A stretch of DNA of 37,247 nt, from IMG/VR virus record IMGVR_UViG_2526164629_000027; one strand, given 5' to 3'. The notes under the pieces are model-generated. The model did not search any database. It saw only the letters and a list, made by a program, of their open reading frames with translations, and was not told the origin of the DNA. Numbering within the stretch: the first letter of the stretch is position 1; each line of letters opens with the position of its first letter. The translations under genes and the position numbers were made by a program. Below are positions 1 to 37,247 of this stretch, in pieces. The DNA comes from a virus (lineage: Duplodnaviria > Heunggongvirae > Uroviricota > Caudoviricetes).

Positions 1-1002
1 TTACCCTCTATTGTCAAAAGGGTTCAATTCAACAGCAGCCTCTAAATGACCTGGAGCAAAATGCGCATAACGCATAGTCATTTTTATATCGCTATGCCCC
101 AGTATTTTTTGCAACACAAGAATATTTCCGCCCCGCATCATAAAATGACTGGCAAACGTGTGACGTAGCACATGAGTTAATTGCCCATCAGGAAGCTCGA
201 TCTTCGCTCTCTTAATTGCAGCGTCAAAAGCCTCATAACATGGTGAAAATAGCGCTCCTCGTTTTTTAGGAAGCATAGCCTGCAATTGAGGTGAAATCGG
301 TACAGTGCGGTTCTTCTTTCCTTTAGTTTTAACAAATGTGATTCGACCGGGCAGTACTTGAGATTGCTTTAATCCTTCTGCTTCACTCCACCGAGCACCC
401 GTCGCAAGCCCAATACGGACAACAACCCCCAAATCTTTATTCCGTGACTCATCACACGCAATCAGAAGGCGCTCAATCTCATCTACATACAGAAACGCCA
501 GTTCCTTTTCTTCCTCACGAAACTTGCGAATACCAGTCAGGGGGTTTTCACCAGACCACTCCCCAAGGCGCTTCAGTTCGGCAAAAACAGCATGTAGATA
601 TGACTGCTCGCGATTAACGGTTGCTTCACTAAGTTTTTTCTTCCCCTTGGGATTCCATTCTCCAGATAGCCTTCTTTCCCGATAAGTAGCAAACATATTT
701 TTGTCAAACTGAGAAGCAAATGGATCTCCCAGCCTGGAACAAATCGCCTCAAGTTTGACTTTGCGCTCTGCACCAGAGGACAAGGTTTTACCGTACATCT
801 CAAACCAACGAGCAATCAACTCAGAAAGACGAGGACCAGAACCATCTTGAAACTCGTCTCCAACTCTACTATTCATTAAACGGCGCTCATAAGAGAGCGC
901 CTCACTTTTTGTCGCAAACTGTTTACGTATGCGTTTTCCCGATGCCCCGTAGGGATAACATTCGCAAAGCCATTTACCTGATGGAATCTTACGAACCGAC
1001 AT
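1..1002 (-). CDS. int: Tyrosine integrase, coliphage 186/P2 family
   Basis: 333 aa; N-terminus MSVRKIPSGKW and C-terminal catalytic region (TGARWSEA, HVLRHTFASHFMM, MTMRYAHF) closely resemble phage 186 Int as I recall it; ATG at 1000-1002. Confidence 0.9.
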   Translation of the reverse strand: MSVRKIPSGKWLCECYPYGASGKRIRKQFATKSEALSYERRLMNSRVGDEFQDGSGPRLSELIARWFEMYGKTLSSGAERKVKLEAICSRLGDPFASQFDKNMFATYRERRLSGEWNPKGKKKLSEATVNREQSYLHAVFAELKRLGEWSGENPLTGIRKFREEEKELAFLYVDEIERLLIACDESRNKDLGVVVRIGLATGARWSEAEGLKQSQVLPGRITFVKTKGKKNRTVPISPQLQAMLPKKRGALFSPCYEAFDAAIKRAKIELPDGQLTHVLRHTFASHFMMRGGNILVLQKILGHSDIKMTMRYAHFAPGHLEAAVELNPFDNRG

Positions 1003-1007
1003 TTTAG

Positions 1008-1355
1008 TTACTTATCACATAAATCAAATGCAGCCTTAGTGACATCCCCCAGACTCTTTTTTAACCCTGGGGCGGCATCATTATCTAGCCAAAATGGATT
1101 ATTGTTATCTAACGGTAACGCACCAAATGTTTTACCTTTTATTCGAGCCAAACCTGTAAGTGCATATAACTTATTATCGTCAAAATTCATCACATAAGGA
1201 TTACCATCAAGACACTGTAATTGAACCTCATCAGTATTAAATGGCCATACCCCATTGAAACTCTCACGTTCAATAGTTTTAAAAGGCATTGCGAGGGCGG
1301 AAAAAGAAAACATAGATAAAAAAGTAACTAATAGTTGAACCTTTTTTACTTTCAT
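1008..1355 (-). CDS. Hypothetical secreted protein (N-terminal signal peptide), lysogeny-operon cargo
   Basis: 115 aa ORF with hydrophobic signal-like N-terminus (LLVTFLSMFSFSALAMP); AT-rich; lies between repressor and int on the same strand, 6 nt upstream of int. Confidence 0.6.
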   Translation of the reverse strand: MKVKKVQLLVTFLSMFSFSALAMPFKTIERESFNGVWPFNTDEVQLQCLDGNPYVMNFDDNKLYALTGLARIKGKTFGALPLDNNNPFWLDNDAAPGLKKSLGDVTKAAFDLCDK

Positions 1356-1384: not shown

Positions 1385-2035
1385 TTACAAATTAAAAAAC
1401 GCCCTAGAAATAACACCTCCTACCAAAACCCCTACGCAGATAAAGAATATTATTTCTTTTGGATAAAGTCGGATTAATTCTGAAGCACGAAGTCGGACTT
1501 CTGGTAAGGTCGAACTCTCTGTGTGGCTTGATGCCGATTGTTGCTCTAACCACGACAATGCAGACTGTAACTGAGAACGAGTAAGATCGTTTAAACGTCC
1601 TGTACCGAAATTGATATGGCAATACCGCAGAAGTTTTTGTCGAAGTCCACAGTCTTCACTGTTACGTAGTAATAAACTTACAAGAGCCTTACAGGCATCA
1701 TGATCTTTACATCGCTCAAGCATTGCATGCAGAAAACTCTCCGCTGTTTTATATTGATTTACTGTCATATCATCAATACCAGCTACACCAATCTCCGCAT
1801 GTACTTTTTGCCAAATAATAAACGCTTCAGTATTGCTAGCTTCTGCAATAGCAGCAACCAAGCTATTTAGCTCCTTACGCTGAGCCTTAAGCAAAGGGCG
1901 ATCGTCATCATCATTATTCGAAGGGATTGCGATATTGACGGTCTGAGAACCATCATATCGCTCTATCTGAATATTCTTTTCGTGAAAATCACGCCCAGCA
2001 ACGCGATTGTTTGAACCGTTTGAGTTGACGGCCAT
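1385..2035 (-). CDS. Hypothetical protein with C-terminal transmembrane anchor, lysogeny-operon cargo
   Basis: 216 aa ORF; strong SD (GGGAGGTG) before the ATG at 2033-2035; C-terminal hydrophobic helix (IIFFICVGVLVGGVI); acidic DDDD stretch; AT-rich. Confidence 0.6.
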   Translation of the reverse strand: MAVNSNGSNNRVAGRDFHEKNIQIERYDGSQTVNIAIPSNNDDDDRPLLKAQRKELNSLVAAIAEASNTEAFIIWQKVHAEIGVAGIDDMTVNQYKTAESFLHAMLERCKDHDACKALVSLLLRNSEDCGLRQKLLRYCHINFGTGRLNDLTRSQLQSALSWLEQQSASSHTESSTLPEVRLRASELIRLYPKEIIFFICVGVLVGGVISRAFFNL

Positions 2036-2050
2036 GTCACCTCCCTACTA

Positions 2051-2455
2051 TCACCTACCCTTAGTTTCGTTATAGTCACGACCAGCGATACGGTTTTTAC
2101 CACCAGAAATATTTAACTCACGTCCTGATGGCTGAGTTTCCTTTTCACTGATCGCACCTTTTAAAGCCCCAATCACCGCGTTTTTCACATCTAACGAAGC
2201 TGCTCGAAAGCGAGTAATCAACTCCTGCTCATCATCGTTATAAGTTTCAGGTGAGTGAATTCCCAACACAACATACTGAACATCAAGGCCAAAACGAGAC
2301 AGCGCTGCCAAATACGCAGCATCAGGAAAGCTATCTCCTTTCTCATATCTAAGCTGAGTTAGCTTTTTGACTCCACCAATGTCGCTCATGGCAACTTGAC
2401 TAAGTCCCAATCTTTCCCTTTCCTCACGCAACCGCTGACCAATATCATTTTTCAT
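2051..2455 (-). CDS. CI-like immunity repressor (XRE-family helix-turn-helix)
   Basis: 134 aa; N-terminal HTH signature (IGQRLREERERLGLSQVAMSDIGGV...YEKG); located between int-side genes and the divergent early operon, the position of the 186/P2 repressor. Confidence 0.8.
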   Translation of the reverse strand: MKNDIGQRLREERERLGLSQVAMSDIGGVKKLTQLRYEKGDSFPDAAYLAALSRFGLDVQYVVLGIHSPETYNDDEQELITRFRAASLDVKNAVIGALKGAISEKETQPSGRELNISGGKNRIAGRDYNETKGR

Positions 2456-2530
2456 ACAAAAACCTTGACAGGTATCTTTTTTGATACCAAAATGATTTCA
2501 CGAGCTATTAGATGATCACAATATACCACT
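2456..2530. promoter_or_regulatory. Immunity switch region: candidate early promoter and operator
   Basis: TTGACA at 2465-2470, then a 6-bp inverted repeat GGTATC-N6-GATACC (2471-2488) in the spacer, then a -10-like CAAAAT; a further ATACC half-site near 2523; sits between the repressor start and the first rightward gene. Confidence 0.5.
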
Positions 2531-2737
2531 ATGAAACAAGTTCTTCACGATACCAGATCACGCATTCCGCGTAACACCGCCACAGGTCCAAGACTGGCAC
2601 TTCGGCTGTCCCTCGAGGAGCGAGCCGTCATTGATGAAATGGCAGCTAAAGAACAACGCTCATCCTCTAACATGGCGCGCATGATCTTCCTTCGCGGCCT
2701 AGAGCTAACCCAGAAAGAACAAAACAAATCTTCCTGA
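2531..2737 (+). CDS. Small DNA-binding protein, first gene of the early lytic operon (Cox/Apl position; possibly ribbon-helix-helix)
   Basis: 68 aa; position immediately after the switch region; basic N-terminus followed by helical segment (LSLEERAVIDEMAAKEQR...MARMIFLRGLEL). Confidence 0.55.
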   Translation: MKQVLHDTRSRIPRNTATGPRLALRLSLEERAVIDEMAAKEQRSSSNMARMIFLRGLELTQKEQNKSS

Positions 2738-2753: not shown

Positions 2754-2957
2754 ATGTCAGGTATAACCATCAATATCAATGTGAATGCCCCCTATGTATC
2801 CCTGCAGAAATATGCAGAGATAACAGGTATCCCTCTTAATACATGCAAAAAGATGTTGGCTGACGGTCGAATAATTATCCGCCCCAAACGCGCCAAAATG
2901 GAAAAGCCTGAAGTAAACCTTGTGGCGATGTTAAAAGACGCTTTGGCTAACAGCTAA
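2754..2957 (+). CDS. Small putative DNA-binding (excisionase/Cox-like) protein
   Basis: 67 aa; SD GGAGG upstream; helix-turn-helix-like segment (LQKYAEITGIPLNTCKKMLADGRIII). Confidence 0.5.
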   Translation: MSGITININVNAPYVSLQKYAEITGIPLNTCKKMLADGRIIIRPKRAKMEKPEVNLVAMLKDALANS

Positions 2958-2978: not shown

Positions 2979-3329
2979 ATGAAAAAAAACGCTAATAATC
3001 CATACTCCAAATTTCGTAATGGCGTAGAACGCCATGTACACCACGTCGCTACCTGTGCATCACGTAGTAACAGTCGCTATAACCTGAACGAGACGCACGC
3101 AACACCGGATGGCCACGCTGTAAAACAAATCGGCGAGCATGCCTGGCTGATTGAGAAAGCTGGAATCGTGGTCCACAAATGCCCACGCAATCCGTTTACC
3201 GGAAACCGCATTTTTGCATTGAACTGCGGCGACAATCACTTCGGGCAGGATTTCACATTATACGAAGCACTTCGCACGGTTGATCGTCTGCTTCGCGGGC
3301 AAAGTTTTATTAAACAGGCTGATTTATAA
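2979..3329 (+). CDS. Hypothetical early protein
   Basis: 116 aa ORF in the co-directional early operon; no recognisable motif. Confidence 0.5.
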   Translation: MKKNANNPYSKFRNGVERHVHHVATCASRSNSRYNLNETHATPDGHAVKQIGEHAWLIEKAGIVVHKCPRNPFTGNRIFALNCGDNHFGQDFTLYEALRTVDRLLRGQSFIKQADL

Positions 3330-3339
3330 CAGGTGCTTT

Positions 3340-3618
3340 ATGACCAAAGAGCATGCACAAGGTGTATTTATCCGTTTTATTGATTTTCGCGGTGAACTGT
3401 TATTACGCGCATCAGCCATTGACGGAGTTGTTCCATCCGAAAAAAACGCAGCTACTTACGTTTATCTGAACGGTACGCGCCTGACTGTGGAGCTTCCGTA
3501 CCAGACCGTACGAGAAATCATTAGCGAAGCTGAAAAGGCACGTCAGGTTAATGGCGATGAACCCTATATCGAAATTATTTGTATGGATTCAGAAGCTGAA
3601 ATTCAGAAAGCAGATTAA
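3340..3618 (+). CDS. Hypothetical early protein
   Basis: 92 aa from the internal ATG at 3340 (the listed ORF start at 3280 would overlap the previous gene); AGGTG upstream. Confidence 0.5.
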   Translation: MTKEHAQGVFIRFIDFRGELLLRASAIDGVVPSEKNAATYVYLNGTRLTVELPYQTVREIISEAEKARQVNGDEPYIEIICMDSEAEIQKAD

Positions 3619-5276: not shown

Positions 5277-5598
5277 GAAACCAGAACATGCACACACAAA
5301 AAAACCGCTTGCCATGTCGCAATCAGTCAGGTTACATTTCCGCTGCACCTCACAAAACGGGTGTCGGGTTTCGCAGCCTGCTGACTACACAAGCGCACAA
5401 CCGCGCCAGCGGTTTTTTTGTGCGTACTGTATTGCCACGTTTTTTTCGCGTCAGAATTATGGCGGGGCGTACGGGGCCGACTTCGGTCGGGCCGGGTTCT
5501 TGTGTAGCCGGTACTGCGAACCTCGTACGTCTCGCCACCCACAGTTTCGCAGCTCTGGATGGTGAGTTTTCACAACTTACTACACAAGGGGCCACACC

Positions 5599-5901: not shown

Positions 5902-6267
5902 ATGATTCTCGCCAACGACTTTCTTGAATACCTGCTCAACACAGAACGTGATCTTGCCGCTCGCGTGCGTGATCGTTATGACATGTACCTGAAATCCCTG
6001 CCTGTACCGCAACTCGCTGACGGAAAAATTGTTATTGATGGTCGCTACATGATCGACAGCCACGAGGGAAATTACAGGCTTTACCGCATTGAAGGTGGCA
6101 CCCCGTCCGTTATTGGCATTTACCAGCGCCCATCCTCTGCAATCGTCGATGTGATTGCCGACAGCATCCGCATCACACATCGCCATGCCGACACAGAAGA
6201 CACCGTGCTGGAAATTCAGCGGCTGGCTACCGTCTGCCGCGACACCCTGAATGGCATGACGAAGTAA
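5902..6267 (+). CDS. Hypothetical protein immediately upstream of the replication gene
   Basis: 121 aa ORF with SD AAGAGG; ends 6 nt before gene A. Confidence 0.55.
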   Translation: MILANDFLEYLLNTERDLAARVRDRYDMYLKSLPVPQLADGKIVIDGRYMIDSHEGNYRLYRIEGGTPSVIGIYQRPSSAIVDVIADSIRITHRHADTEDTVLEIQRLATVCRDTLNGMTK

Positions 6268-6273
6268 ATCACT

Positions 6274-9021
6274 ATGACGGCAGAGTACATCAGGGACTGG
6301 CAACAACCGCGCCACGCCGTGGGGCGTGAAGGAACGGGGATCCCCGCTCCTGAATCCGCGCTTTCCTCCTGGCTGGATGCCTACCGGGCAGAGAACGAAC
6401 GCCGCCAGGAAATGGCTGATGCGGCGTTCTCCGCCACGCCGCTGGGCAACCTGATTAATAAAAGCCTGGACGCACAGGAAAAACAGGACAAAACCATCAC
6501 ACTGGCAGGAGACGCCAGAAAACAGGCACGCGGCGCGGTGGATGAAGCCATGGCCTCGCTGCGCCTGCTGCCGTCCTATCTGCGCGATCCGCTTATTCGC
6601 CACCTCTCCTTCCTGCGCAAAAAACAGGAAGCCGATCGCCGGAAAGGCAAAAAGAGCTGGCAGGCGGAACGCTATGCACGCGGAACCCTGCGCAAAATAT
6701 TCGAACGTCTGGATCGCACTGACGGACACTGGCTGACACCGGGTTATCGCTCCCTTGCCGGACGCGAACGCCTGGACGATTTGCTTTACCTGCCGCAGCT
6801 CAACAAACACCAGATACAGACGCTGGCCACCATGACGGCGGCGATGTTCAGCAGCACCTTCGAAAAACTCTGCGATGGCTTTGGCGCGACCGATGGCGAG
6901 CTGACCATGGATGTAACGCTGAAGGCGTATCAGATGCTGGCCCGCATGGCGTTACACCTGCACGCCATGCCTCCACATTATGACGCACTGACAACAGACA
7001 AAGACCGGAGGAACGAACCAGACACGGAGCTGCTGCCGGGCGCAATCCTTCGCCTGACCTGTGCGGAATGGTGGAAACGCAAACTGTGGCTGTTACGTTG
7101 CGAGTGGAGAGAAGAACAACTCCGCGCCGCCTGTCTGGTTTCCAGAAAAACATCACCCTATCTGAGCCAGGACGCGTTAAGCGAGTTTCGCGCACAGCGC
7201 GAGAAAACACGCGATTTCCTGAAAAGTTTCATGCTAGAAAATGAAGACGGGTTCACGATTGATCTCGAGACGGTGTATTACGCGGGAGTAAGTAACCCGG
7301 TTCACCGTAAGGCAGAAATGATGGCCACCATGAAGGGACTGGAACTTCTGGCCGAAGCCCGTGGCGACAGAGCGGTGTTTCTGACTGTCACCTGCCCGTC
7401 AAAATACCACGCAACAACGGAGAACGGTCATCCGAACCCCAAATGGAACGGGGCCACCATGCGCGACTCCAGCGATTACCTGGTTAACACGTTTTTTGCG
7501 GCAGTCCGCAAAAAACTGAACCGCGACGGTCTGCGCTGGTATGGCATCCGCACGGTGGAGCCTCACCATGACGGCACCGTGCACTGGCATATGATGGTCT
7601 TTGCTCATCCGGAAGAAATCGACAGCATCGTGGCCATCACCCGCGATATTGCCATTCAGGAAGACCGCCACGAGCTGGGCAATGATATTACTCCGCGCTT
7701 TAAGGTGGAGTATGTCGACGGCTCAAAAGGCACACCAACCAGCTATATCGCGACCTACATCGGAAAAAACCTGGACAGCCGCGCCGTGGATGGCATCGAC
7801 CCGAAAACGGGCAAGCCACGCGTTGACCACGAAACCGGAAAATCAATGGCCGAGAGCGTGGAACGCGCCATCGGCTGGGCGCGCCTTCACCGGGTCCGCC
7901 AGTTCCAGTTCTTTGGTATCCCCTCCCGTCAGGTGTGGCGTGAACTGCGCCGCCTTGCCAGCCAGATGGCACGCAACCCGGAAGGCCCGCAACGGCTGAA
8001 GGATGACGCAATGGACGCGGTACTCGCTGCCGCTGATGCCGGATGTTTTGCCACCTACATTGAGAAACAGGGTGGCGTACTTGTTCCACGCAAAGACTAC
8101 CTGATTCGCACCGCCTACGACCTCGCAGATGAGCTGAACGATTACGGTGAACAGAGCGTACAGATTTACGGGATCTGGTCGCCGCTCATTGGGGAGTCTT
8201 CCCGCGTATGCACGCATCCGGATAACTGGAAGCTGGTAAGACGCAAACCGGAAGCGGAAGACAGCGCCCGCGAAAATGGTTTTGACCTTCAGGGCGGCCC
8301 TGCCGCCCCTTGGACTCGTGGCAATAACTGTCCCCGTGTACAGGAAACGGACAACAACGGGACAGAACAGCCGGAAGAACGGCCAGCACCGTGGCCGCGG
8401 CTTCCTGAAGGCGTTGACGTGAATGAATGGATGCGCTCACTGAAACGGCACGAACGCCGGGCACTGATGCGTTCGCTGCGTGACAAACAGGCAAAAAACA
8501 GCAGTGATGAAATGCAGAACTGGACACAGAGCCGCAAACAGCCACAGCCTTTGCCTGATAACCACGAGTTACTCGCTAAAGAATGGCGGGAGTCTGCTGA
8601 ATCTCTCGGCCTGCATATCGGTGAACAGCAGATGCAGCACCTGTTACGAGGCGGCAGTCTGTACGTTGGCGGCAGCATCATTGCACCGCAGGGATTTGAA
8701 ATTGTACGCAAACAGGATACCCGCCCGGACAGCCGAATCACGCAGCTCTGGCAACGCCTGAGTCGTAATCACGGCGTAAGCAGCACGGAGATCCGCCATA
8801 ACCCGGTCGCCAGCTATCTGGAACAACTAGAGGCATCAGACCCTGAAGCCGCCGCACGCCTGGCATCCACACTTCAGCAAGACCAGAACACCATGAAAAC
8901 ACCCGTTACCGTACTTTCTGACATGCTGCGCGCCATCCGCGACGCAGAGCACGCACAGAGAATCAGTGAAACCACTAAACATGCTCGCAAAAAAATCAGT
9001 TTATTGCATCGAACACGATAG
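6274..9021 (+). CDS. A: Replication initiation protein A (rolling-circle HUH endonuclease, P2 gpA family)
   Basis: 915 aa; HUH-type motif (HWHMMVFAH) and a tyrosine-pair motif (YIATYIGKN) characteristic of the P2 A family. Confidence 0.9.
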   Translation: MTAEYIRDWQQPRHAVGREGTGIPAPESALSSWLDAYRAENERRQEMADAAFSATPLGNLINKSLDAQEKQDKTITLAGDARKQARGAVDEAMASLRLLPSYLRDPLIRHLSFLRKKQEADRRKGKKSWQAERYARGTLRKIFERLDRTDGHWLTPGYRSLAGRERLDDLLYLPQLNKHQIQTLATMTAAMFSSTFEKLCDGFGATDGELTMDVTLKAYQMLARMALHLHAMPPHYDALTTDKDRRNEPDTELLPGAILRLTCAEWWKRKLWLLRCEWREEQLRAACLVSRKTSPYLSQDALSEFRAQREKTRDFLKSFMLENEDGFTIDLETVYYAGVSNPVHRKAEMMATMKGLELLAEARGDRAVFLTVTCPSKYHATTENGHPNPKWNGATMRDSSDYLVNTFFAAVRKKLNRDGLRWYGIRTVEPHHDGTVHWHMMVFAHPEEIDSIVAITRDIAIQEDRHELGNDITPRFKVEYVDGSKGTPTSYIATYIGKNLDSRAVDGIDPKTGKPRVDHETGKSMAESVERAIGWARLHRVRQFQFFGIPSRQVWRELRRLASQMARNPEGPQRLKDDAMDAVLAAADAGCFATYIEKQGGVLVPRKDYLIRTAYDLADELNDYGEQSVQIYGIWSPLIGESSRVCTHPDNWKLVRRKPEAEDSARENGFDLQGGPAAPWTRGNNCPRVQETDNNGTEQPEERPAPWPRLPEGVDVNEWMRSLKRHERRALMRSLRDKQAKNSSDEMQNWTQSRKQPQPLPDNHELLAKEWRESAESLGLHIGEQQMQHLLRGGSLYVGGSIIAPQGFEIVRKQDTRPDSRITQLWQRLSRNHGVSSTEIRHNPVASYLEQLEASDPEAAARLASTLQQDQNTMKTPVTVLSDMLRAIRDAEHAQRISETTKHARKKISLLHRTR

Positions 9022-9066: not shown

Positions 9067-9876
9067 TCAACCTATCTTCTTATGAAGTAAAATTAATTTC
9101 TGTATTAATTTGGAATGAAACATAGATATATCAGAAATTCTTATTTCATTAGGCGAGTCTATATGATTGGAAACTTCTTCCTCCAAGGAGTCACAAATAC
9201 TTTCTAGATTTTCAATATCTGCATTTAATTCTGGAAAACTATTAAACAAATATAATGAATCCCGTAACTCTCCTAGTTTTGGTAAAAGAGTATTACTGAA
9301 TACACTAAGAAATTCCTCTTCTGATAATGCCATGGAGTTTTTAAAATTTTGCACAACATCGAATGCCAACCCATTAATTTTAGGCATAATTACTTCTCTT
9401 ACCCAATACCCTTCATTAATAGCTTCTTTACGTTCTTTTCTATGTTGAACACAAGGAATAACAAAGGATGAAACTAAAGCAAATAAAGAGATGCCAATAG
9501 AAATCCACTCTGGACCATTTTCCGGAACCTTTACAATATTATATATATCATAGGAATTTGGAACATCTTTGAAATAATTAGCAAATAAATCTTTTTTGTT
9601 ATCCCTTGCCAGAGATAACTTATGAAAGGTGTCGTTTGCCTTTTCACAAAACATCAAGCCATCATTCGGGTTTCCGGATAACAAAAACGGTGATGATATA
9701 CCACCAAGTCCTGAATCGGAAATATAAAAAGGCGTGTTTGGATAAAGTGACTCATTACATTCAATGTTTTCTTTGTTGGAAAAATCTGTCACAGAGCAAG
9801 CTGCGGGGAATATAAAAAAAATGACAGACAGCGCTGTCATTTTGATTTGAAAAATATTTTTAAAAGAAGGGAACAT
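9067..9876 (-). CDS. Cargo gene d: bitopic membrane protein (signal/lipoprotein-like N-terminus, central TM helix), unknown function
   Basis: 269 aa; about 30% GC; N-terminal hydrophobic segment ending in Cys (VIFFIFPAAC), central TM (WISIGISLFALVSSFVIPCV), acidic C-terminal domain; overlaps the end of gene c by 17 nt. Confidence 0.6.
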   Translation of the reverse strand: MFPSFKNIFQIKMTALSVIFFIFPAACSVTDFSNKENIECNESLYPNTPFYISDSGLGGISSPFLLSGNPNDGLMFCEKANDTFHKLSLARDNKKDLFANYFKDVPNSYDIYNIVKVPENGPEWISIGISLFALVSSFVIPCVQHRKERKEAINEGYWVREVIMPKINGLAFDVVQNFKNSMALSEEEFLSVFSNTLLPKLGELRDSLYLFNSFPELNADIENLESICDSLEEEVSNHIDSPNEIRISDISMFHSKLIQKLILLHKKIG

Positions 9877-10204
9877 TTTTATGTAAGCCTCTCCTTACAG
9901 CTCTATCTAATTCAGAAAGCATACCTTCTTTATATTCACGACCATCAAGTACAGTGCGACTATAAAATTCGCTAGGCGAAGAAAATTTCGGCAAAACCGT
10001 TTCAAGCATACCTAGAAAGTATGAGCTTGATACAACAATTCCCTTGGGGATCAATAGATATAATCTATCATTACTGGTTGTGCAAAATTTCCCTATATTA
10101 AAGTAATCATAGGCTTGGCGCCCATTAGAACGTCCTGCAAAAAGTTTCTTGTTACTATCTTTTACTAACTTATTGAAATCTATGGTGATGTCAGCCATTT
10201 TCAT
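9860..10204 (-). CDS. Cargo gene c: small protein with a STAS-like (anti-sigma-antagonist-like) Ser motif
   Basis: 114 aa; ATG with SD GAGGA; segment GIVVSSSYFLGML resembles the conserved phospho-Ser region of SpoIIAA/RsbV-type STAS domains (recognised by eye only). Confidence 0.55.
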   Translation of the reverse strand: MKMADITIDFNKLVKDSNKKLFAGRSNGRQAYDYFNIGKFCTTSNDRLYLLIPKGIVVSSSYFLGMLETVLPKFSSPSEFYSRTVLDGREYKEGMLSELDRAVRRGLHKNVPFF

Positions 10205-10214
10205 GTACCTGTCC

Positions 10215-11282
10215 TCAAGTTCGCTGGGTGGCGTTTTCTGGTAGAGGAAAACGAATATTGATCATAACTCCAGGAAATCGAGCATCCTTCATACGCTTAA
10301 GATAGTTGCGATCCGGTTCAGATTCAAGCCCTACATCATTAAAAGGGTAAGTAAAAATGTCACTTTCCTCGTCATTAACCAACCTTTGCTTTAATTTATA
10401 TGATCCATCAAAGTTAATATGAGTACTACCAGATATTAAAGTCATTTTTATCCCACCTTTAATATCTCTTCCCATTTTTTTAAGATTATCATGCATATCT
10501 TGAAATAACTTCAATAATTCAATTGTTCCGGTGCCAGAACTGTCAGTTTCTTTCTCGTTTTTACAACTCACCCGCCCTTGCAAGGCCGCTACTGTTGTTA
10601 ATCCTTCCTTAAACATACCCTTTTTCTTAATATGCTTATTTATGTATGGATTAACTTGTTGACTTAATGAAAAATGATCCTCAGGTAAATTATCAAAAGT
10701 TTCGCTGATAGTTTTCCCAAAATTGAAAACAGCCAACTCACATATGGGGTTTCGTACGTTATTATTAACAAAACCTCTCAAATACCAGCGTGGGCGTTGC
10801 TCTAACCCACAATGCCGCTCCGCATTATCAAGGAGTTCCCCCATGCAGGAAGTTAAATGCTTTTCTGCCTCATGTACAAGTTTTAAATTATGATCATTTA
10901 AGCATTCGTTTATGTATGCGGTAAATTTTTCAGCAGTGACATTTTTTCTGTCATGGGCAAAGGCAGAAGCATTCTCCTTTCCGATACTATCAGCAGAGAA
11001 GATTCGTTTCTTCGGATTCGCTTTTTTCGATGCTTCAGTAGAGTCCAGAACTTTACCTGGTGCAGCATTACTAATCTCTTTTACAAGCCCGACATCCCTG
11101 ATAATTTCAAGATACTGTTCATCTTTAGGGTAGATACCATTAATCTGAATCATCGTATCTTTGAAATTTATATTACTTTGCCTTGCTGCTGTAAGAGCAA
11201 CACCTAATAGACACTCAAGACCAAGACAGTGTTTTTGTTTTCTTGTAATCAAAAATATATGATTTCCATTTACCTCTTGCAA
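10215..11282 (-). CDS. Cargo gene b: GHKL (histidine-kinase-like) ATPase-domain protein
   Basis: 355 aa as listed (TTG start); the first in-frame ATG is at 11153; N-box-like GELLDNAERH (ExxxNAxxH) and Gly-rich DSSGTGTIELL segment; AT-rich. Confidence 0.55.
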   Translation of the reverse strand: MQEVNGNHIFLITRKQKHCLGLECLLGVALTAARQSNINFKDTMIQINGIYPKDEQYLEIIRDVGLVKEISNAAPGKVLDSTEASKKANPKKRIFSADSIGKENASAFAHDRKNVTAEKFTAYINECLNDHNLKLVHEAEKHLTSCMGELLDNAERHCGLEQRPRWYLRGFVNNNVRNPICELAVFNFGKTISETFDNLPEDHFSLSQQVNPYINKHIKKKGMFKEGLTTVAALQGRVSCKNEKETDSSGTGTIELLKLFQDMHDNLKKMGRDIKGGIKMTLISGSTHINFDGSYKLKQRLVNDEESDIFTYPFNDVGLESEPDRNYLKRMKDARFPGVMINIRFPLPENATQRT

Positions 11283-26409: not shown

Positions 26410-26804
26410 TGACATTCAGAATGAGTGAACAATCACGGACCATAAAAATTTATAATCTACTGACCGGAACCAATGAGTTTATTGGTGAAGGTGATGCATA
26501 CATTCCACCTCATACAGGTCTGCCTGCAAACAGTACCGATATTGCCCCGCCAGATATTCCGGCTGGCTTCGTGGCCGTTTTCAACAGTGATGAGGCATCG
26601 TGGCATCTCGTTGAAGACCATCGGGGTAAAACTGTTTATGACGTGGCATCAGGGGACTCGTTATTTATTTCTGAACTCGGTCCATTACCGGAAAATGTTA
26701 CCTGGTTGTCGCCGTATGGAGAGTATCAGAAGTGGAACGGCACATCCTGGGTGAAAGATGCAGAAGCAGAAAAACTGTTTCGGATAAGGGAGGCGGAAGA
26801 ATAA
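26409..26804 (+). CDS. G: Tail fibre assembly chaperone, N-terminal part (P2 gpG/Tfa family)
   Basis: 131 aa; position immediately after H; its conserved C-terminal Tfa region is in another frame. Confidence 0.7.
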
Positions 26805-26986
26805 AAAACAGCCTGATGCAGGTAGCCAGCGAGCATATTGCGCCACTTCAGGATGCCGTAGATTTGGATATTGCAACGGAGGAAGAGGCATCGTTACTGG
26901 CTGCATGGAAGACATACCGGGTATTGTTGAATCGTGTTAATACAGCGGTAGCAGCGGATGTTGAGTGGCCAGTCGCCCCACAATAA
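26732..26986 (+). CDS. Tail fibre assembly chaperone, C-terminal conserved region in a different frame (frameshifted continuation of G)
   Basis: Translation ...[61 protein letters not shown] matches conserved Tfa C-termini; no credible independent start. Confidence 0.5.
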
Positions 26987-36244: not shown

Positions 36245-36331
36245 TGGTACCCGGAGCGGGACTTGAACCCGCACAGCGCGAACGCCGAGGGATTTTAAAT
36301 CCCTTGTGTCTACCGATTCCACCATCCGGGC
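36245..36331 (-). tRNA. leuZ: tRNA-Leu (anticodon UAA)
   Basis: 87-nt minus-strand sequence gcccggatggtggaatcggtagacacaagggatttaaaatccc...gggtacca with long variable arm and CCA end. Confidence 0.9.
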
Positions 36332-36343
36332 TCGGGAAGAAAG

Positions 36344-36417
36344 TGGAGGCGCGTTCCGGAGTCGAACCGGACTAGACGGATTTGCAATCCGCTACATAAC
36401 CGCTTTGTTAACGCGCC
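36344..36417 (-). tRNA. cysT: tRNA-Cys (anticodon GCA)
   Basis: 74-nt minus-strand sequence ggcgcgttaacaaagcggttatgtagcggattgcaaatccg...cgcctcca. Confidence 0.9.
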
Positions 36418-36471
36418 AAATTCTTCAGGCCTTTCAGCCAGACATCCGCTTGACGCCGATGTCTTTTAAAC

Positions 36472-36547
<76 letters not shown>

Positions 36548-36698
36548 ATTCATCAAGCAATCAGTTAATCACTTGATTTTATTATCGTCTGGCAATCAGT
36601 GCCGCCGTTCGATGCGTTGCATTCTACTTACCTGGCGCGATGAGTCAACGATATTTTTCACCACTTTTGATCGTTTGCTGAAAATTACGCCGAAACGA

Positions 36699-37247
36699 TC
36701 ACTGATCAAGCAAATCTGCACGCGCAGCGCTCAAATATTGCAACATTGACCACAGAGTCAGTACCGCAGCCACAAAGAAAAGTGCAATACCGGCGTACTC
36801 AACCCAAATGTTCGGACGCCACAGCAGCCAGGCCAACGCCACCATCTGGGCAGTGGTTTTCACTTTCCCAATCCAAGAGACAGCCACGCTACTGCGTTTA
36901 CCCAACTCCGCCATCCATTCGCGTAGCGCAGAAATAATAATTTCACGGGCGATCATCGTTGCCGCCGGTAGGGTCACCCACCAGCTGTGATAATGCTCGG
37001 TTACCAGCACCATGGCGATAGCCACGAGAACTTTATCTGCTACAGGGTCAAGGAAAGCACCAAACCGGGTACTCTGGTTCCAGCGGCGTGCCAGAAAACC
37101 ATCGAACCAGTCAGTCACCGCCGCGACGCAGAAAATGAGCGCGGCGGCAAACGGCGACCAGGTGACAGGCAGATAAAAGACCAATACAAAGAATGGGATA
37201 AGGATGACACGGAACAGTGTAAGCAACGTAGGGATATTAAATTGCAT
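36699..37247 (-). CDS. pgsA: CDP-diacylglycerol--glycerol-3-phosphate 3-phosphatidyltransferase
   Basis: 182 aa; translation [21 protein letters not shown]...[10 protein letters not shown] matches enterobacterial PgsA as I recall it; sits upstream of glyW-cysT-leuZ as in E. coli. Confidence 0.85.

Follow-up and report, generated by a model that had tools for sequence, protein, structure and literature searches.

The closest described relatives of the gene pair treated here, in organisation, are the amyloid-signalling pairs HET-S/NWD2 of fungi, Bell/NLR of bacteria (motifs BASS1-10) and Bab/Agp (BASS11). In these, the upstream protein ends with a motif of about 20 residues, with which the product of the next, collinear gene begins; there are diverse motif families, each matching within its pair, and the motif is rich in N, G, Q and V, poor in L and P, and unstructured in the monomer. 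Enrichment of N, G, Q, V and I and depletion of K, P and L have been reported for the bacterial motifs (bioRxiv 10.1101/2020.01.06.895854), and Bab/Agp, an abortive infection (Abi) system of an E. coli prophage working via the 20-residue BASS11 motif, has been tested with peptides and GFP reporters for fibrils and foci (bioRxiv 10.1101/2024.11.07.622273). The same arrangement is found in the 37,247-nucleotide stretch analysed here in full ("the window"; IMG/VR record IMGVR_UViG_2526164629_000027), a P2-like (Peduoviridae) E. coli prophage with 97.8% identity to Escherichia phage 520873. In it, the C-terminal tail of a putative prophage immunity repressor of 134 amino acids (aa) is mirrored by the N-terminal head of the 216-aa membrane-anchored protein, here called the partner, that is encoded by the next gene.

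The carriers of the motifs are of a different kind from those of amyloid signalling: a DNA-binding immunity repressor on one side and, on the other, a membrane-anchored protein with an Flk_N domain or a zinc ribbon. No NACHT, NB-ARC, TPR or Bell domains were found in the repressor or partner proteins, and the pair has neither an NLR/STAND/TPR sensor nor a Bell/HeLo pore-forming effector; the output to be expected would be transcriptional, at the lysogeny switch, and not cell death, and the AGRD variant of the motif present in the window is more charged than is typical. With those sensor and effector classes absent, and with an amyloid fold no more than proposed, it is not filed as a member of the amyloid-signalling family. 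Literature searches on Flk and prophages, on amyloid and repressors or prophages, and on amyloid signalling and helix-turn-helix (HTH) proteins gave no earlier description of a mirrored motif in a repressor and a membrane protein. The logic of the mirrored-motif pair is known, and its use on a prophage immunity repressor appears to be new; the computational evidence that the two peptides co-evolve is strong.

The repressor ends in ...NISGGKNRIAGRDYNETKGR (the longer stretch up to the stop being ...ELNISGGKNRIAGRDYNETKGR) and the partner starts with MAVNSNGSNNRVAGRDFHEKN, in agreement with a preliminary description of this DNA, which had drawn attention to a core N-R-[IV]-A-G-R-D-[YF]-x-E shared by the two termini. 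The likeness is longer than first noted, reaching 17 aligned residues (LNISGGKNRIAGRDYNE in the tail, VNSNGSNNRVAGRDFHE in the head) with a BLOSUM62 local score of 56, which only 5 of 20,000 full-length shuffles reached (Gumbel p ~3.5e-4); the p-value takes no account of where the match lies, at the very end of one protein and the very start of the next. No third AGRD[FY] site occurs in a genuine reading frame of the window. The shuffles, together with the conservation across the family described below, exclude chance similarity. Both open reading frames (ORFs) lie in one frame, with three consecutive stops (TGA TAG TAG) and GGAGGTGAC between them before the ATG of the partner; since no promoter-like or terminator-like site is seen between the genes, they are likely to be co-transcribed.

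How tail and head behave when the motif changes was followed in 230 loci from viral, metagenomic and genome collections, in which the last 40 residues of the repressor were compared with the first 60 of the next ORF. A Mu-like prophage of Pectobacterium, for instance, has a repressor of the same family with a very different tail, ...PQIFNGDISGQFAGNQIINNGVVSNKKNK, and the Flk_N protein encoded downstream starts MRQEFNGTAQGQFSSRDIINIHPP. Motifs that are quite unlike one another are likewise mirrored within their own pairs, as in (tail / head) PQIFNGDISGQFAGNQIINN / RQEFNGTAQGQFSSRDIINI and KQTFHGSVGQSVAGNVTN / SQDFHGDVGQAAAGDINN; others are KQTFHGSVGQSVAGNVTNKSGVTFNVG / MSQDFHGDVGQAAAGDINNYGVSISLV, VKQVFHGAVSGGVAARDIINN / MQEFQGNVDGGVAGRDIVNQ, QQFNGPVGGVTSGDVVN / QQFNGAVKQVAAGDIKN, VTQHINSSGGQVAGRNIINK / VTQEINRNDGQVAGRDINNY, NFESEINGGQFSTGTIHNHYKEK / RFEKDIHGGQFGNIHNHYEQK and VIQTNTGQGAVQIG / QQKNTGNGALQIG. 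With one pair taken per tail type (n = 44), the scores of cognate pairs sum to 1589, as against 975 +/- 45 when the pairs are permuted (z = 13.7; reached in 0 of 100,000 permutations), and 14 cognate heads are the best match of their own tail where about 1 would be expected. Even within the AGRD class (31 distinct pairs), tails resemble their own heads more than those of other pairs (z = 3.7, p ~1e-4), down to such details as RDFHEN/RDFHEK, RDYHEK/RDYKEN, NRAAGRD/NRAAGRD and NRTAGRD/NRTAGE. Chromosomal XRE proteins from the same search that adjoin a response regulator served as negative controls and scored 13-30. Old duplicates that had diverged independently would be no closer within a genome than between genomes; the excess therefore shows that tail and head evolve in concert.

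The likeness is one of peptides and not of DNA. In the locus whose repressor is 100% identical to that of the window (L017), nucleotide identity over the aligned codons is 0.59, and the same codon is used at 4 of 9 identical degenerate residues, with 3.7 expected from codon usage; over 37 non-redundant pairs, the codon is identical at 151 of 378 such residues, with 165 expected. Codon identity at chance level leaves no trace of gene conversion or recent duplication, and recent duplication, gene conversion and a DNA repeat were rejected as explanations on this ground. Selection on the peptide, as the preliminary description had proposed from the differing nucleotides, is thus what keeps tail and head alike. 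In the same 37 pairs the median distance between the end of the motif and the C-terminus of the repressor is 3 residues, and in the partner the motif starts at residue 4 (median); the gaps between the paired genes are mostly -4 to +32 nt. The aligned length has a median of 18, with 28-31 in pairs of the FHG type, as compared with at least about 15 and typically 20-25 residues for amyloid-signalling motifs. Within the motif N is enriched 4.0-fold, G 2.2-fold, V 1.4-fold and Q 1.3-fold, I stands at 1.0-fold, L (0.13-fold), P (0.30-fold) and K (0.58-fold) are depleted, and W and C are absent. Charged "gatekeeper" residues flank it, and the tails have K/R-rich ends, with 2.5 basic residues among the last 6 as compared with 1.2 in control XRE proteins.

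The version of the motif seen in the window is widespread. About 120 partner homologues, from Escherichia, Klebsiella, Serratia, Erwinia, Enterobacter, Kosakonia and others, start with M-x-V-N-S-x-G-x-x-N-R-x-A-G-R-D-F-N-E-N, and head positions S5, G7, N10, R11, D16 and E19 do not vary among 27 diverse homologues. On the repressor side, about 60 homologues (Yersinia, Serratia, Klebsiella, Salmonella, Dickeya, Pectobacterium, Erwinia and Hafnia) have the C-terminal sequence INVSGxGNR[VI]AGRD[YF][NH]E[NH]KK, followed by a stop. Absence of the motif from homologues, which would have spoken against a shared function, is thus not what the searches of homologous repressors and their neighbours gave. 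All 9 species-representative genome loci, as well as the Salmonella and Yersinia loci, have the order repressor, head-bearing Flk_N partner, variable gene or genes, integrase. A degenerating endosymbiont (L009) has the two motifs in decayed form and a frameshift in its partner gene. Mirrored pairs of one type or another occur in P2-like and Mu-like prophages of Enterobacterales, Burkholderia, Ralstonia, Pseudomonas and Gilliamella and in viral and metagenomic loci, following a general rule: a disordered N/G/V/Q-rich tail of about 18 residues on the repressor is mirrored by the first 20 or so residues of the next, membrane-anchored protein. Among cultured phages, examples are BcepMu gp17/gp18 (tail RQEQVFHGSVGQAVKVEGN..., head GKQEFNKPVGQAIQAGEAN...), phiE202 gp22, KS5 gp12, AP3 and phiE255 gp47. 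When 50,697 cultured phage records were searched with the consensus motif by tblastn, the match in nearly every record was a partner adjoining a repressor, and in Komp_PAO1_1 it was the repressor's own tail. A profile search of 5.8 billion proteins, for which the query must have at least 40 aa, returned 171 candidates with one match and was uninformative. A relative of the same HTH family that has no tail, in a 186-like prophage of E. coli, has neighbours without a mirrored head.

Two loci depart from the simple one-to-one arrangement. In Salmonella enterica subsp. salamae (L241, 767-2801) three tandem XRE repressor paralogues, two with intact AGRD tails and one with a degenerate tail, precede a single Flk_N partner with an AGRD head, so that several tails share one head. 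In L175 a second ORF (3159-3593) ends in a tail very like that of the repressor (SIGQQINGNVYGDIIF...KRK, score 60), making a tail-tail rather than a tail-head pair. A further lead, and only that, comes from the FHG-type tails (for example T-F-H-G-S-V-G-Q-S-V-A-G-N-V-T-N): residues T85, I87-G88-S89-V90, Q92, D99 and N100 of Bab are in register with their pattern T-F-H-G-S-V-G-Q-x-x-x-G-x-x-x-N. A degenerate DNA pattern built on these eight named residues gave one Bab-like candidate, which was a structural protein and was rejected as a false positive.

The identification of the 134-aa protein as a putative immunity repressor relies on its HTH and on the position of its gene. It shares the invariant HTH pattern RLxEERERxGxxQ...V...Q..YE of its relatives (alignment A2), belongs to PHROG 8 ("transcriptional regulator", E = 2.5e-14), matches HTH_31, HTH_19 and HTH_3 below the Pfam cut-offs, and has weak matches to HTH domains of the MqsA/HipB type; the matches from PADLOC are weak ones to RmrA at the level of the HTH. 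In an AlphaFold2 (AF2) model built on 29 aligned sequences, helices span residues 5-64 and 74-102 with a predicted local distance difference test score (pLDDT) of 85-93, and residues 105-134 are unstructured (pLDDT < 50). The helices at 74-102 are presumed to be a dimerisation element. No match to the Peptidase_S24 domain of self-cleaving repressors of the LexA/lambda-CI type was found in the protein, whose C-terminal part consists of these two helices and the disordered tail. Its gene is divergent from the Arc-like and Cox-like early genes and lies near int, which is the position of C/CI in phages of the P2/186 type, and the relatives too, including those of the Mu-like locus, are HTH proteins divergent from an early lytic operon and adjoining integration or transposition genes; those of the cultured Burkholderia phages BcepMu (gp17), Mana and Carl1 are annotated as immunity repressors.

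In the AF2 model of the partner, an unstructured start (residues 1-41) is followed by a helical domain predicted with confidence (46-172), then by a linker, and last by a C-terminal transmembrane (TM) helix (192-215). Its second conserved stretch, after the head, has I24, D28, T32, N34 and P38 invariant. PF27202 (Flk_N) is precomputed for its homologues, and it shows the layout of Flk_N followed by a C-terminal anchor. The match to the NCBIfam model of Flk itself, PRK10715, is partial (residues 35-166 on profile positions 18-149, E = 7.8e-16) and at 58.3 bits is far below the equivalog cut-off of 353; with no full-length match either, assignment as an Flk orthologue was rejected. Residues 46-105 are homologous to a unit found in antirepressor-type proteins of the AntA and Rha kinds (for the AntA type, hhalign 95.5%, E = 1.4e-8). 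An exhaustive HMM search of 1.84 billion representative proteins gave 138 Flk_N clusters in two groups: host Flk orthologues, which start MQP.SGP..., and phage-type proteins (130-330 aa), at the start of which an N/G-rich head of the AGRD, FHG or VGQV kind is almost always present. The middles of the partners vary. Flk_N plus anchor is the commonest form; others have a CxxC zinc ribbon and two TM helices (118-142 aa), are two-TM proteins of about 150-180 aa, or are longer (260-349 aa), combining a TM segment with a Cys-containing module in the periplasm. Membrane anchoring is general, 31 of 37 partners passing a strict hydropathy threshold and 4 more having a C-terminal hydrophobic anchor just below it. 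Because the middles vary while the N-terminal head and the anchoring stay, the repressor is the constant partner of the head, and membrane location is the constant property of the protein that carries it. The 216-aa protein had been called cargo in the preliminary description; it is instead a conserved part of the module, and the interchangeable position is that of the gene after it.

In the longer partners (BcepMu gp18, at 2214-2996 of L234, and those of L081, L083 and L166) the module after the TM segment has the pattern C-x-[FY]-x-G-x-x-[YF]-[SA]-x-G...C; it has no Pfam match and may be a sensing domain. In the deposited genome of phage 520873 (L237) the region corresponding to 1380-2060 of the window has single-base deletions in homopolymer runs of the Flk_N gene, which is unannotated there; they are either real frameshifts or sequencing errors. 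PADLOC defence models gave no match for the 216-aa partner, and its assignment to a known defence system was rejected.

One natural fusion is known from the metagenomic set. P0377 (239 aa) joins an XRE HTH to an Flk_N-like domain (hhalign 90.8%, E = 1.2e-6 over 140 columns) by an N/G/I-rich linker, KGVNIAGSNSGNINIDNSKTTNIIESN, to which residues 20-41 of the partner align, and it has no membrane anchor. As a single case, it would lend Rosetta-stone-type support to a physical partnership of the two proteins.

Taken in this light, the repressor's disordered C-terminal tail and the partner's cytoplasmic N-terminal head would be two halves of a co-evolving recognition pair, associating like with like through beta-strands, either by in-register stacking of the amyloid type or as a simpler beta-zipper. 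Through this association the membrane protein would capture, nucleate or convert the repressor, and the availability of the repressor, and hence immunity or induction, would be tied to a partner located in the membrane. By analogy with the amyloid-signalling pairs, the membrane protein, which bears the motif at its N-terminus, would serve as trigger, and the repressor, which bears it at its C-terminus, as target, with the repressor sequestered or polymerised at the membrane as the outcome; the proposal covers both directions of effect, sequestration with derepression and reinforced repression. That direct homotypic pairing of tail and head links the repressor to its membrane partner is considered probable, somewhat beyond an even chance. 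Counted in its favour is the motif layout, which is the defining signature of amyloid signalling; so are the generality and co-variation of the pairs and the kinship of part of Flk_N with antirepressor-type proteins. Ordinary interfaces, moreover, evolve complementarity, and it is in-register stacking that demands likeness; composition, terminal position, charged flanks and disorder in the monomer point in the same direction. The core helices of the repressor are conserved while the tails diverge, and a co-evolving docking site on the globular part is therefore disfavoured. The functional coupling suggested by the preliminary description is in keeping with the co-variation of tail and head between lineages and with the tail-less relative whose neighbours bear no head.

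A more specific form of the proposal, in which prion-like templating wires the lysis-lysogeny switch, is tentative and on the whole unlikely. By analogy with the systems described at the outset, the partner would be a sensor that oligomerises on activation, its heads would nucleate a cross-beta fold that converts the repressor tails, and polymerisation or sequestration of the repressor would free the prophage from repression with no need of SOS or RecA. Several observations weigh against homotypic pairing in general or against this form of it. The AF2 models of the monomers leave both motifs unstructured (pLDDT < 50), with no strands assigned, beside confidently predicted domains; the AGRD motif of E. 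coli, with its R, D, E and K, is rather charged for an amyloid core; and a profile of the motif had no match in the PDB. Permanent co-expression of a repressor with its captor needs an extra layer of control. The fusion P0377 is one metagenomic protein whose primary E-value is marginal (7.2e-4). For several repressors that carry a tail, finally, no mirrored partner is encoded within 2.5 kb (L093/L095/L161, L109, which is phage Komp_PAO1_1, L163 and L170), and because of these the tail is likely to have a separate function as well, for instance in self-association, that the partner exploits.

The alternatives share much of this evidence. Tail and head might form a stable, stoichiometric, non-amyloid complex, by a two-stranded beta-zipper or beta-augmentation, that tethers a pool of repressor at the inner membrane, with no templating or switch-like conversion: the membrane protein could titrate the repressor as a buffer and so make the lysogeny switch sharper, or could concentrate the repressor at the site of DNA entry. 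Everything that argues for direct pairing applies here equally; the AGRD-type motif is short and charged, the tightly coupled translation signals and close spacing of most pairs suit a fixed stoichiometry, and a reversible complex fits constant co-expression more easily. Such a tether is nonetheless rated unlikely, if a serious contender. The composition, rich in N and G and poor in L and P, and the longer versions with several strands, KQVFHGSVGQVVEGSITNEAGVSFNFG among them, resemble the repeats of beta-arches or solenoids and not a single strand, and a simple hetero-complex needs no likeness between its partners. It is also conceivable that the two peptides never touch, and that both are a degron or docking site for a third factor (ClpXP, Lon, FtsH, a chaperone or a phage protein) by which repressor and membrane protein are degraded or handled together. 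The C-terminal tail of the phage Mu repressor governs its degradation by ClpXP, which counts for this reading, and terminal, disordered, exposed peptides are typical of degrons; the basic ends of the tails and the tails that lack a mirrored partner would fit as well. The site of a host factor should, however, stay constant within a host, and here many motif types occur in related hosts, each matching only its own neighbour; nor is there any constant third gene, the surroundings being Arc and Cox in the P2-like phages, transposition genes in the Mu-like ones, and a variable slot downstream. A third factor, the chief rival to direct pairing, is accordingly held to be doubtful, at clearly longer odds than the tether. 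Of the roles offered in the preliminary description -- interaction, degradation or processing -- lineage-specific co-variation thus favours direct interaction over a degron recognised by the host, and processing drew no support of any kind.

Two further readings dispense with any working relation between the copies. In one, the motifs would be separate self-association modules of common origin, serving cooperativity in the repressor and oligomerisation in the membrane for the partner, with no cross-talk. The occurrence of tails without partners suits this, as does the position of the tail, which is that of cooperativity elements in other repressors, but it provides no reason for the copies to track one another over more than 14 sequence types with synonymous sites randomised, and it is thought improbable. 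In the other, duplication or gene fission would have left the likeness behind as a neutral remnant, or it would be a repeat at the DNA level or the vestige of a read-through fusion, as the common frame of the two ORFs in the window and the one fused homologue might suggest. This is scarcely credible, since codon identity is at chance, tail and head co-vary and the motifs are conserved at the amino-acid level across bacterial orders; a read-through or fusion product was rejected outright, three stops intervening in the window and frame and spacing varying among relatives.

Known antirepressors offer a functional parallel to direct pairing. These proteins, among them P22 Ant, P1 Ant, 186 Tum, CTXphi RstC and VP882 Qtip, act by binding or aggregating phage repressors, and the locus would resemble them in that a second phage protein targets the immunity repressor; the core unit of Flk_N is also homologous to the unit of AntA- and Rha-type proteins noted above. 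To our knowledge, the antirepressors described so far are soluble proteins whose promoters are controlled separately and which have no sequence in common with their target, whereas the candidate described here is membrane-anchored, is probably co-transcribed with the repressor and would recognise it by a mirrored peptide. Capture at the membrane has precedents in the sequestration of transcription factors (Mlc by PtsG, and PutA), where a membrane-located captor inactivates a repressor.

Host Flk (Fluke/RflH) has in common with the partner the Flk_N helical domain, a C-terminal membrane anchor and a cytoplasmic body. Tail-anchored and cytoplasmic, it inhibits the switch in specificity of flagellar type III secretion (PMC13344023). 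It differs from the partner in its length of about 330 residues, in an N-terminus rich in Pro and Gly (MIQPISGPPPGQ...) and in the presence of two Flk_N units, and it has neither a mirrored head nor an adjacent repressor. Lysogenic-conversion genes such as lambda rexAB and the exclusion genes of the sieB type likewise lie directly downstream of the repressor, are expressed in the lysogen and encode a membrane protein, but they share no sequence with their repressors, and the partner lacks a PADLOC match. Type II toxin-antitoxin systems with an XRE-HTH antitoxin are similar in combining an HTH protein that has a disordered C-terminal tail with a tightly coupled downstream gene; the tails of antitoxins, however, complement the toxin and do not copy its N-terminus, and the repressor gene here is divergent from cox/arc or ner and adjoins int or a transposase, as expected for prophage immunity.

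P2-like and Mu-like prophages with this type of repressor lack a self-cleaving repressor domain, and the cue by which they leave the host is poorly understood. The co-changing copies point to a direct, previously undescribed link between the lysogeny switch and the cell membrane, and the shared peptide offers a concrete and cheap experimental handle on how such prophages sense when to exit, in E. coli and also in Salmonella, Klebsiella and Yersinia, in Burkholderia pseudomallei phages, and in Ralstonia and Pseudomonas, where versions of the module occur. Should the pairing be amyloid-like, amyloid signalling would reach gene regulation, beyond cell-death effectors; a templated switch, in Peduoviridae and Mu-like prophages (those of E. 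coli O157:H7 included), would for the first time show amyloid signalling at work on a transcription factor and in the control of phage induction. A plain tether would be a new way to titrate a repressor. In either case, the rule that a C-terminus mirrors the N-terminus encoded by the next gene would predict protein partnerships from sequence beyond the NLR systems.

The features of the window around the motif pair are collected in Table 1.

Table 1. Genes, domains and motifs at the immunity end of the window, in order of position
Feature	Position	Strand	Basis
Integrase (int)	1-1002	-	Pfam match
DUF2511 secreted protein, gene in the variable slot	1008-1355	-	Pfam match
Membrane-anchored partner, 216 aa (head, Flk_N, TM anchor)	1385-2035	-	ORF; phrog_5825, E = 6.6e-103; AF2
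C-terminal TM anchor of partner, residues 192-215	1391-1462	-	Hydropathy of window 193-209 = 2.24; AF2 helix
Flk_N helical domain of partner, residues 46-172	1520-1900	-	AF2, five helices, pLDDT 84-93
Second conserved stretch near the N-terminus of partner, residues 20-41, KNIQIERYDGSQTVNIAIPSNN, not matched in the repressor	1913-1978	-	Low pLDDT
Head motif of partner, residues 3-19, VNSNGSNNRVAGRDFHE (core NRVAGRDFHE, 1979-2008)	1979-2029	-	pLDDT < 50 for residues 1-27
Junction: stops TGA TAG TAG (2045-2053), Shine-Dalgarno GGAGGTGA (2037-2044), 15-nt intergenic gap	2036-2053	-	
XRE-type immunity repressor (putative), 134 aa (HTH, two helices, disordered tail)	2051-2455	-	ORF; PHROG 8; AF2
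Tail motif of repressor, residues 113-130, LNISGGKNRIAGRDYNE (core NRIAGRDYNE, 2066-2095), followed by basic end TKGR	2066-2119	-	
Two conserved helices of repressor, residues 74-102, DEQELIxxFRxAxLxVKxAxxxAL	2150-2236	-	AF2; conservation in alignments A2/A3
HTH DNA-binding domain of repressor, residues 5-64	2264-2443	-	AF2, five helices, pLDDT > 90; alignment A2
Divergent control region between repressor and early operon	2456-2530		Sigma-70-like site TTGACA-17-CAAAAT at 2465-2493, plus strand
Arc-like repressor, early lytic regulator	2531-2737	+	phrog_3431, E = 9.8e-29
Cox-like excisionase/repressor, early lytic regulator	2754-2957	+	phrog_575, E = 1.2e-27

The stretch from 1000 to 2800 is present in 525 of 5,426 complete E. 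coli genomes, O157:H7, O103 and O111 among them, and at 99% identity or more in 479. The slot between the partner gene and int, occupied by DUF2511 here, holds unrelated genes of 102-292 aa in L002, L004, L006 and L010; it is this slot, and not the Flk_N gene, that is the real moron position. No canonical SOS box was found in the window, the sole match to the LexA pattern being GC-rich, inside a gene and at chance level, and no tum-like ORF was found at the prophage end; an SOS-linked route of induction was rejected on these two grounds.

Further into the early operon, Rfam models detect an isrK-like Hfq-binding small RNA at 5345-5419 (+, 61.9 bits) and a C4 antisense RNA at 5455-5542 (+, 83.2 bits), upstream of a 121-aa ORF (5902-6267; phrog_3237, function unassigned) and of gene A, the replication endonuclease (6274-9021). 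C4 RNAs regulate icd/ant in the immI region of P1, and by analogy a second module for immunity or antirepression, based on RNA, may be present in this prophage. After gene A follow three minus-strand genes (9067-11282) for proteins of 269, 114 and 355 aa. PADLOC gave no match for them, and PHROG none that was informative, the one seen being weak and to a family without an assigned function; they are possible cargo of a P2-type hotspot. In the late region, the Rfam family IS009 is strongly matched (184 bits) at 26752-26949 (+). At the right end (36245-37247, minus strand) lie a cluster of genes for tRNA-Leu, tRNA-Cys and tRNA-Gly and an ORF of 182 aa. These are host flanking genes, and the window therefore covers the whole prophage. 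In L238 a 182-aa gene that flanks a related prophage on the host side has a PF01066 (CDP-OH_P_transf) domain of the pgsA type.

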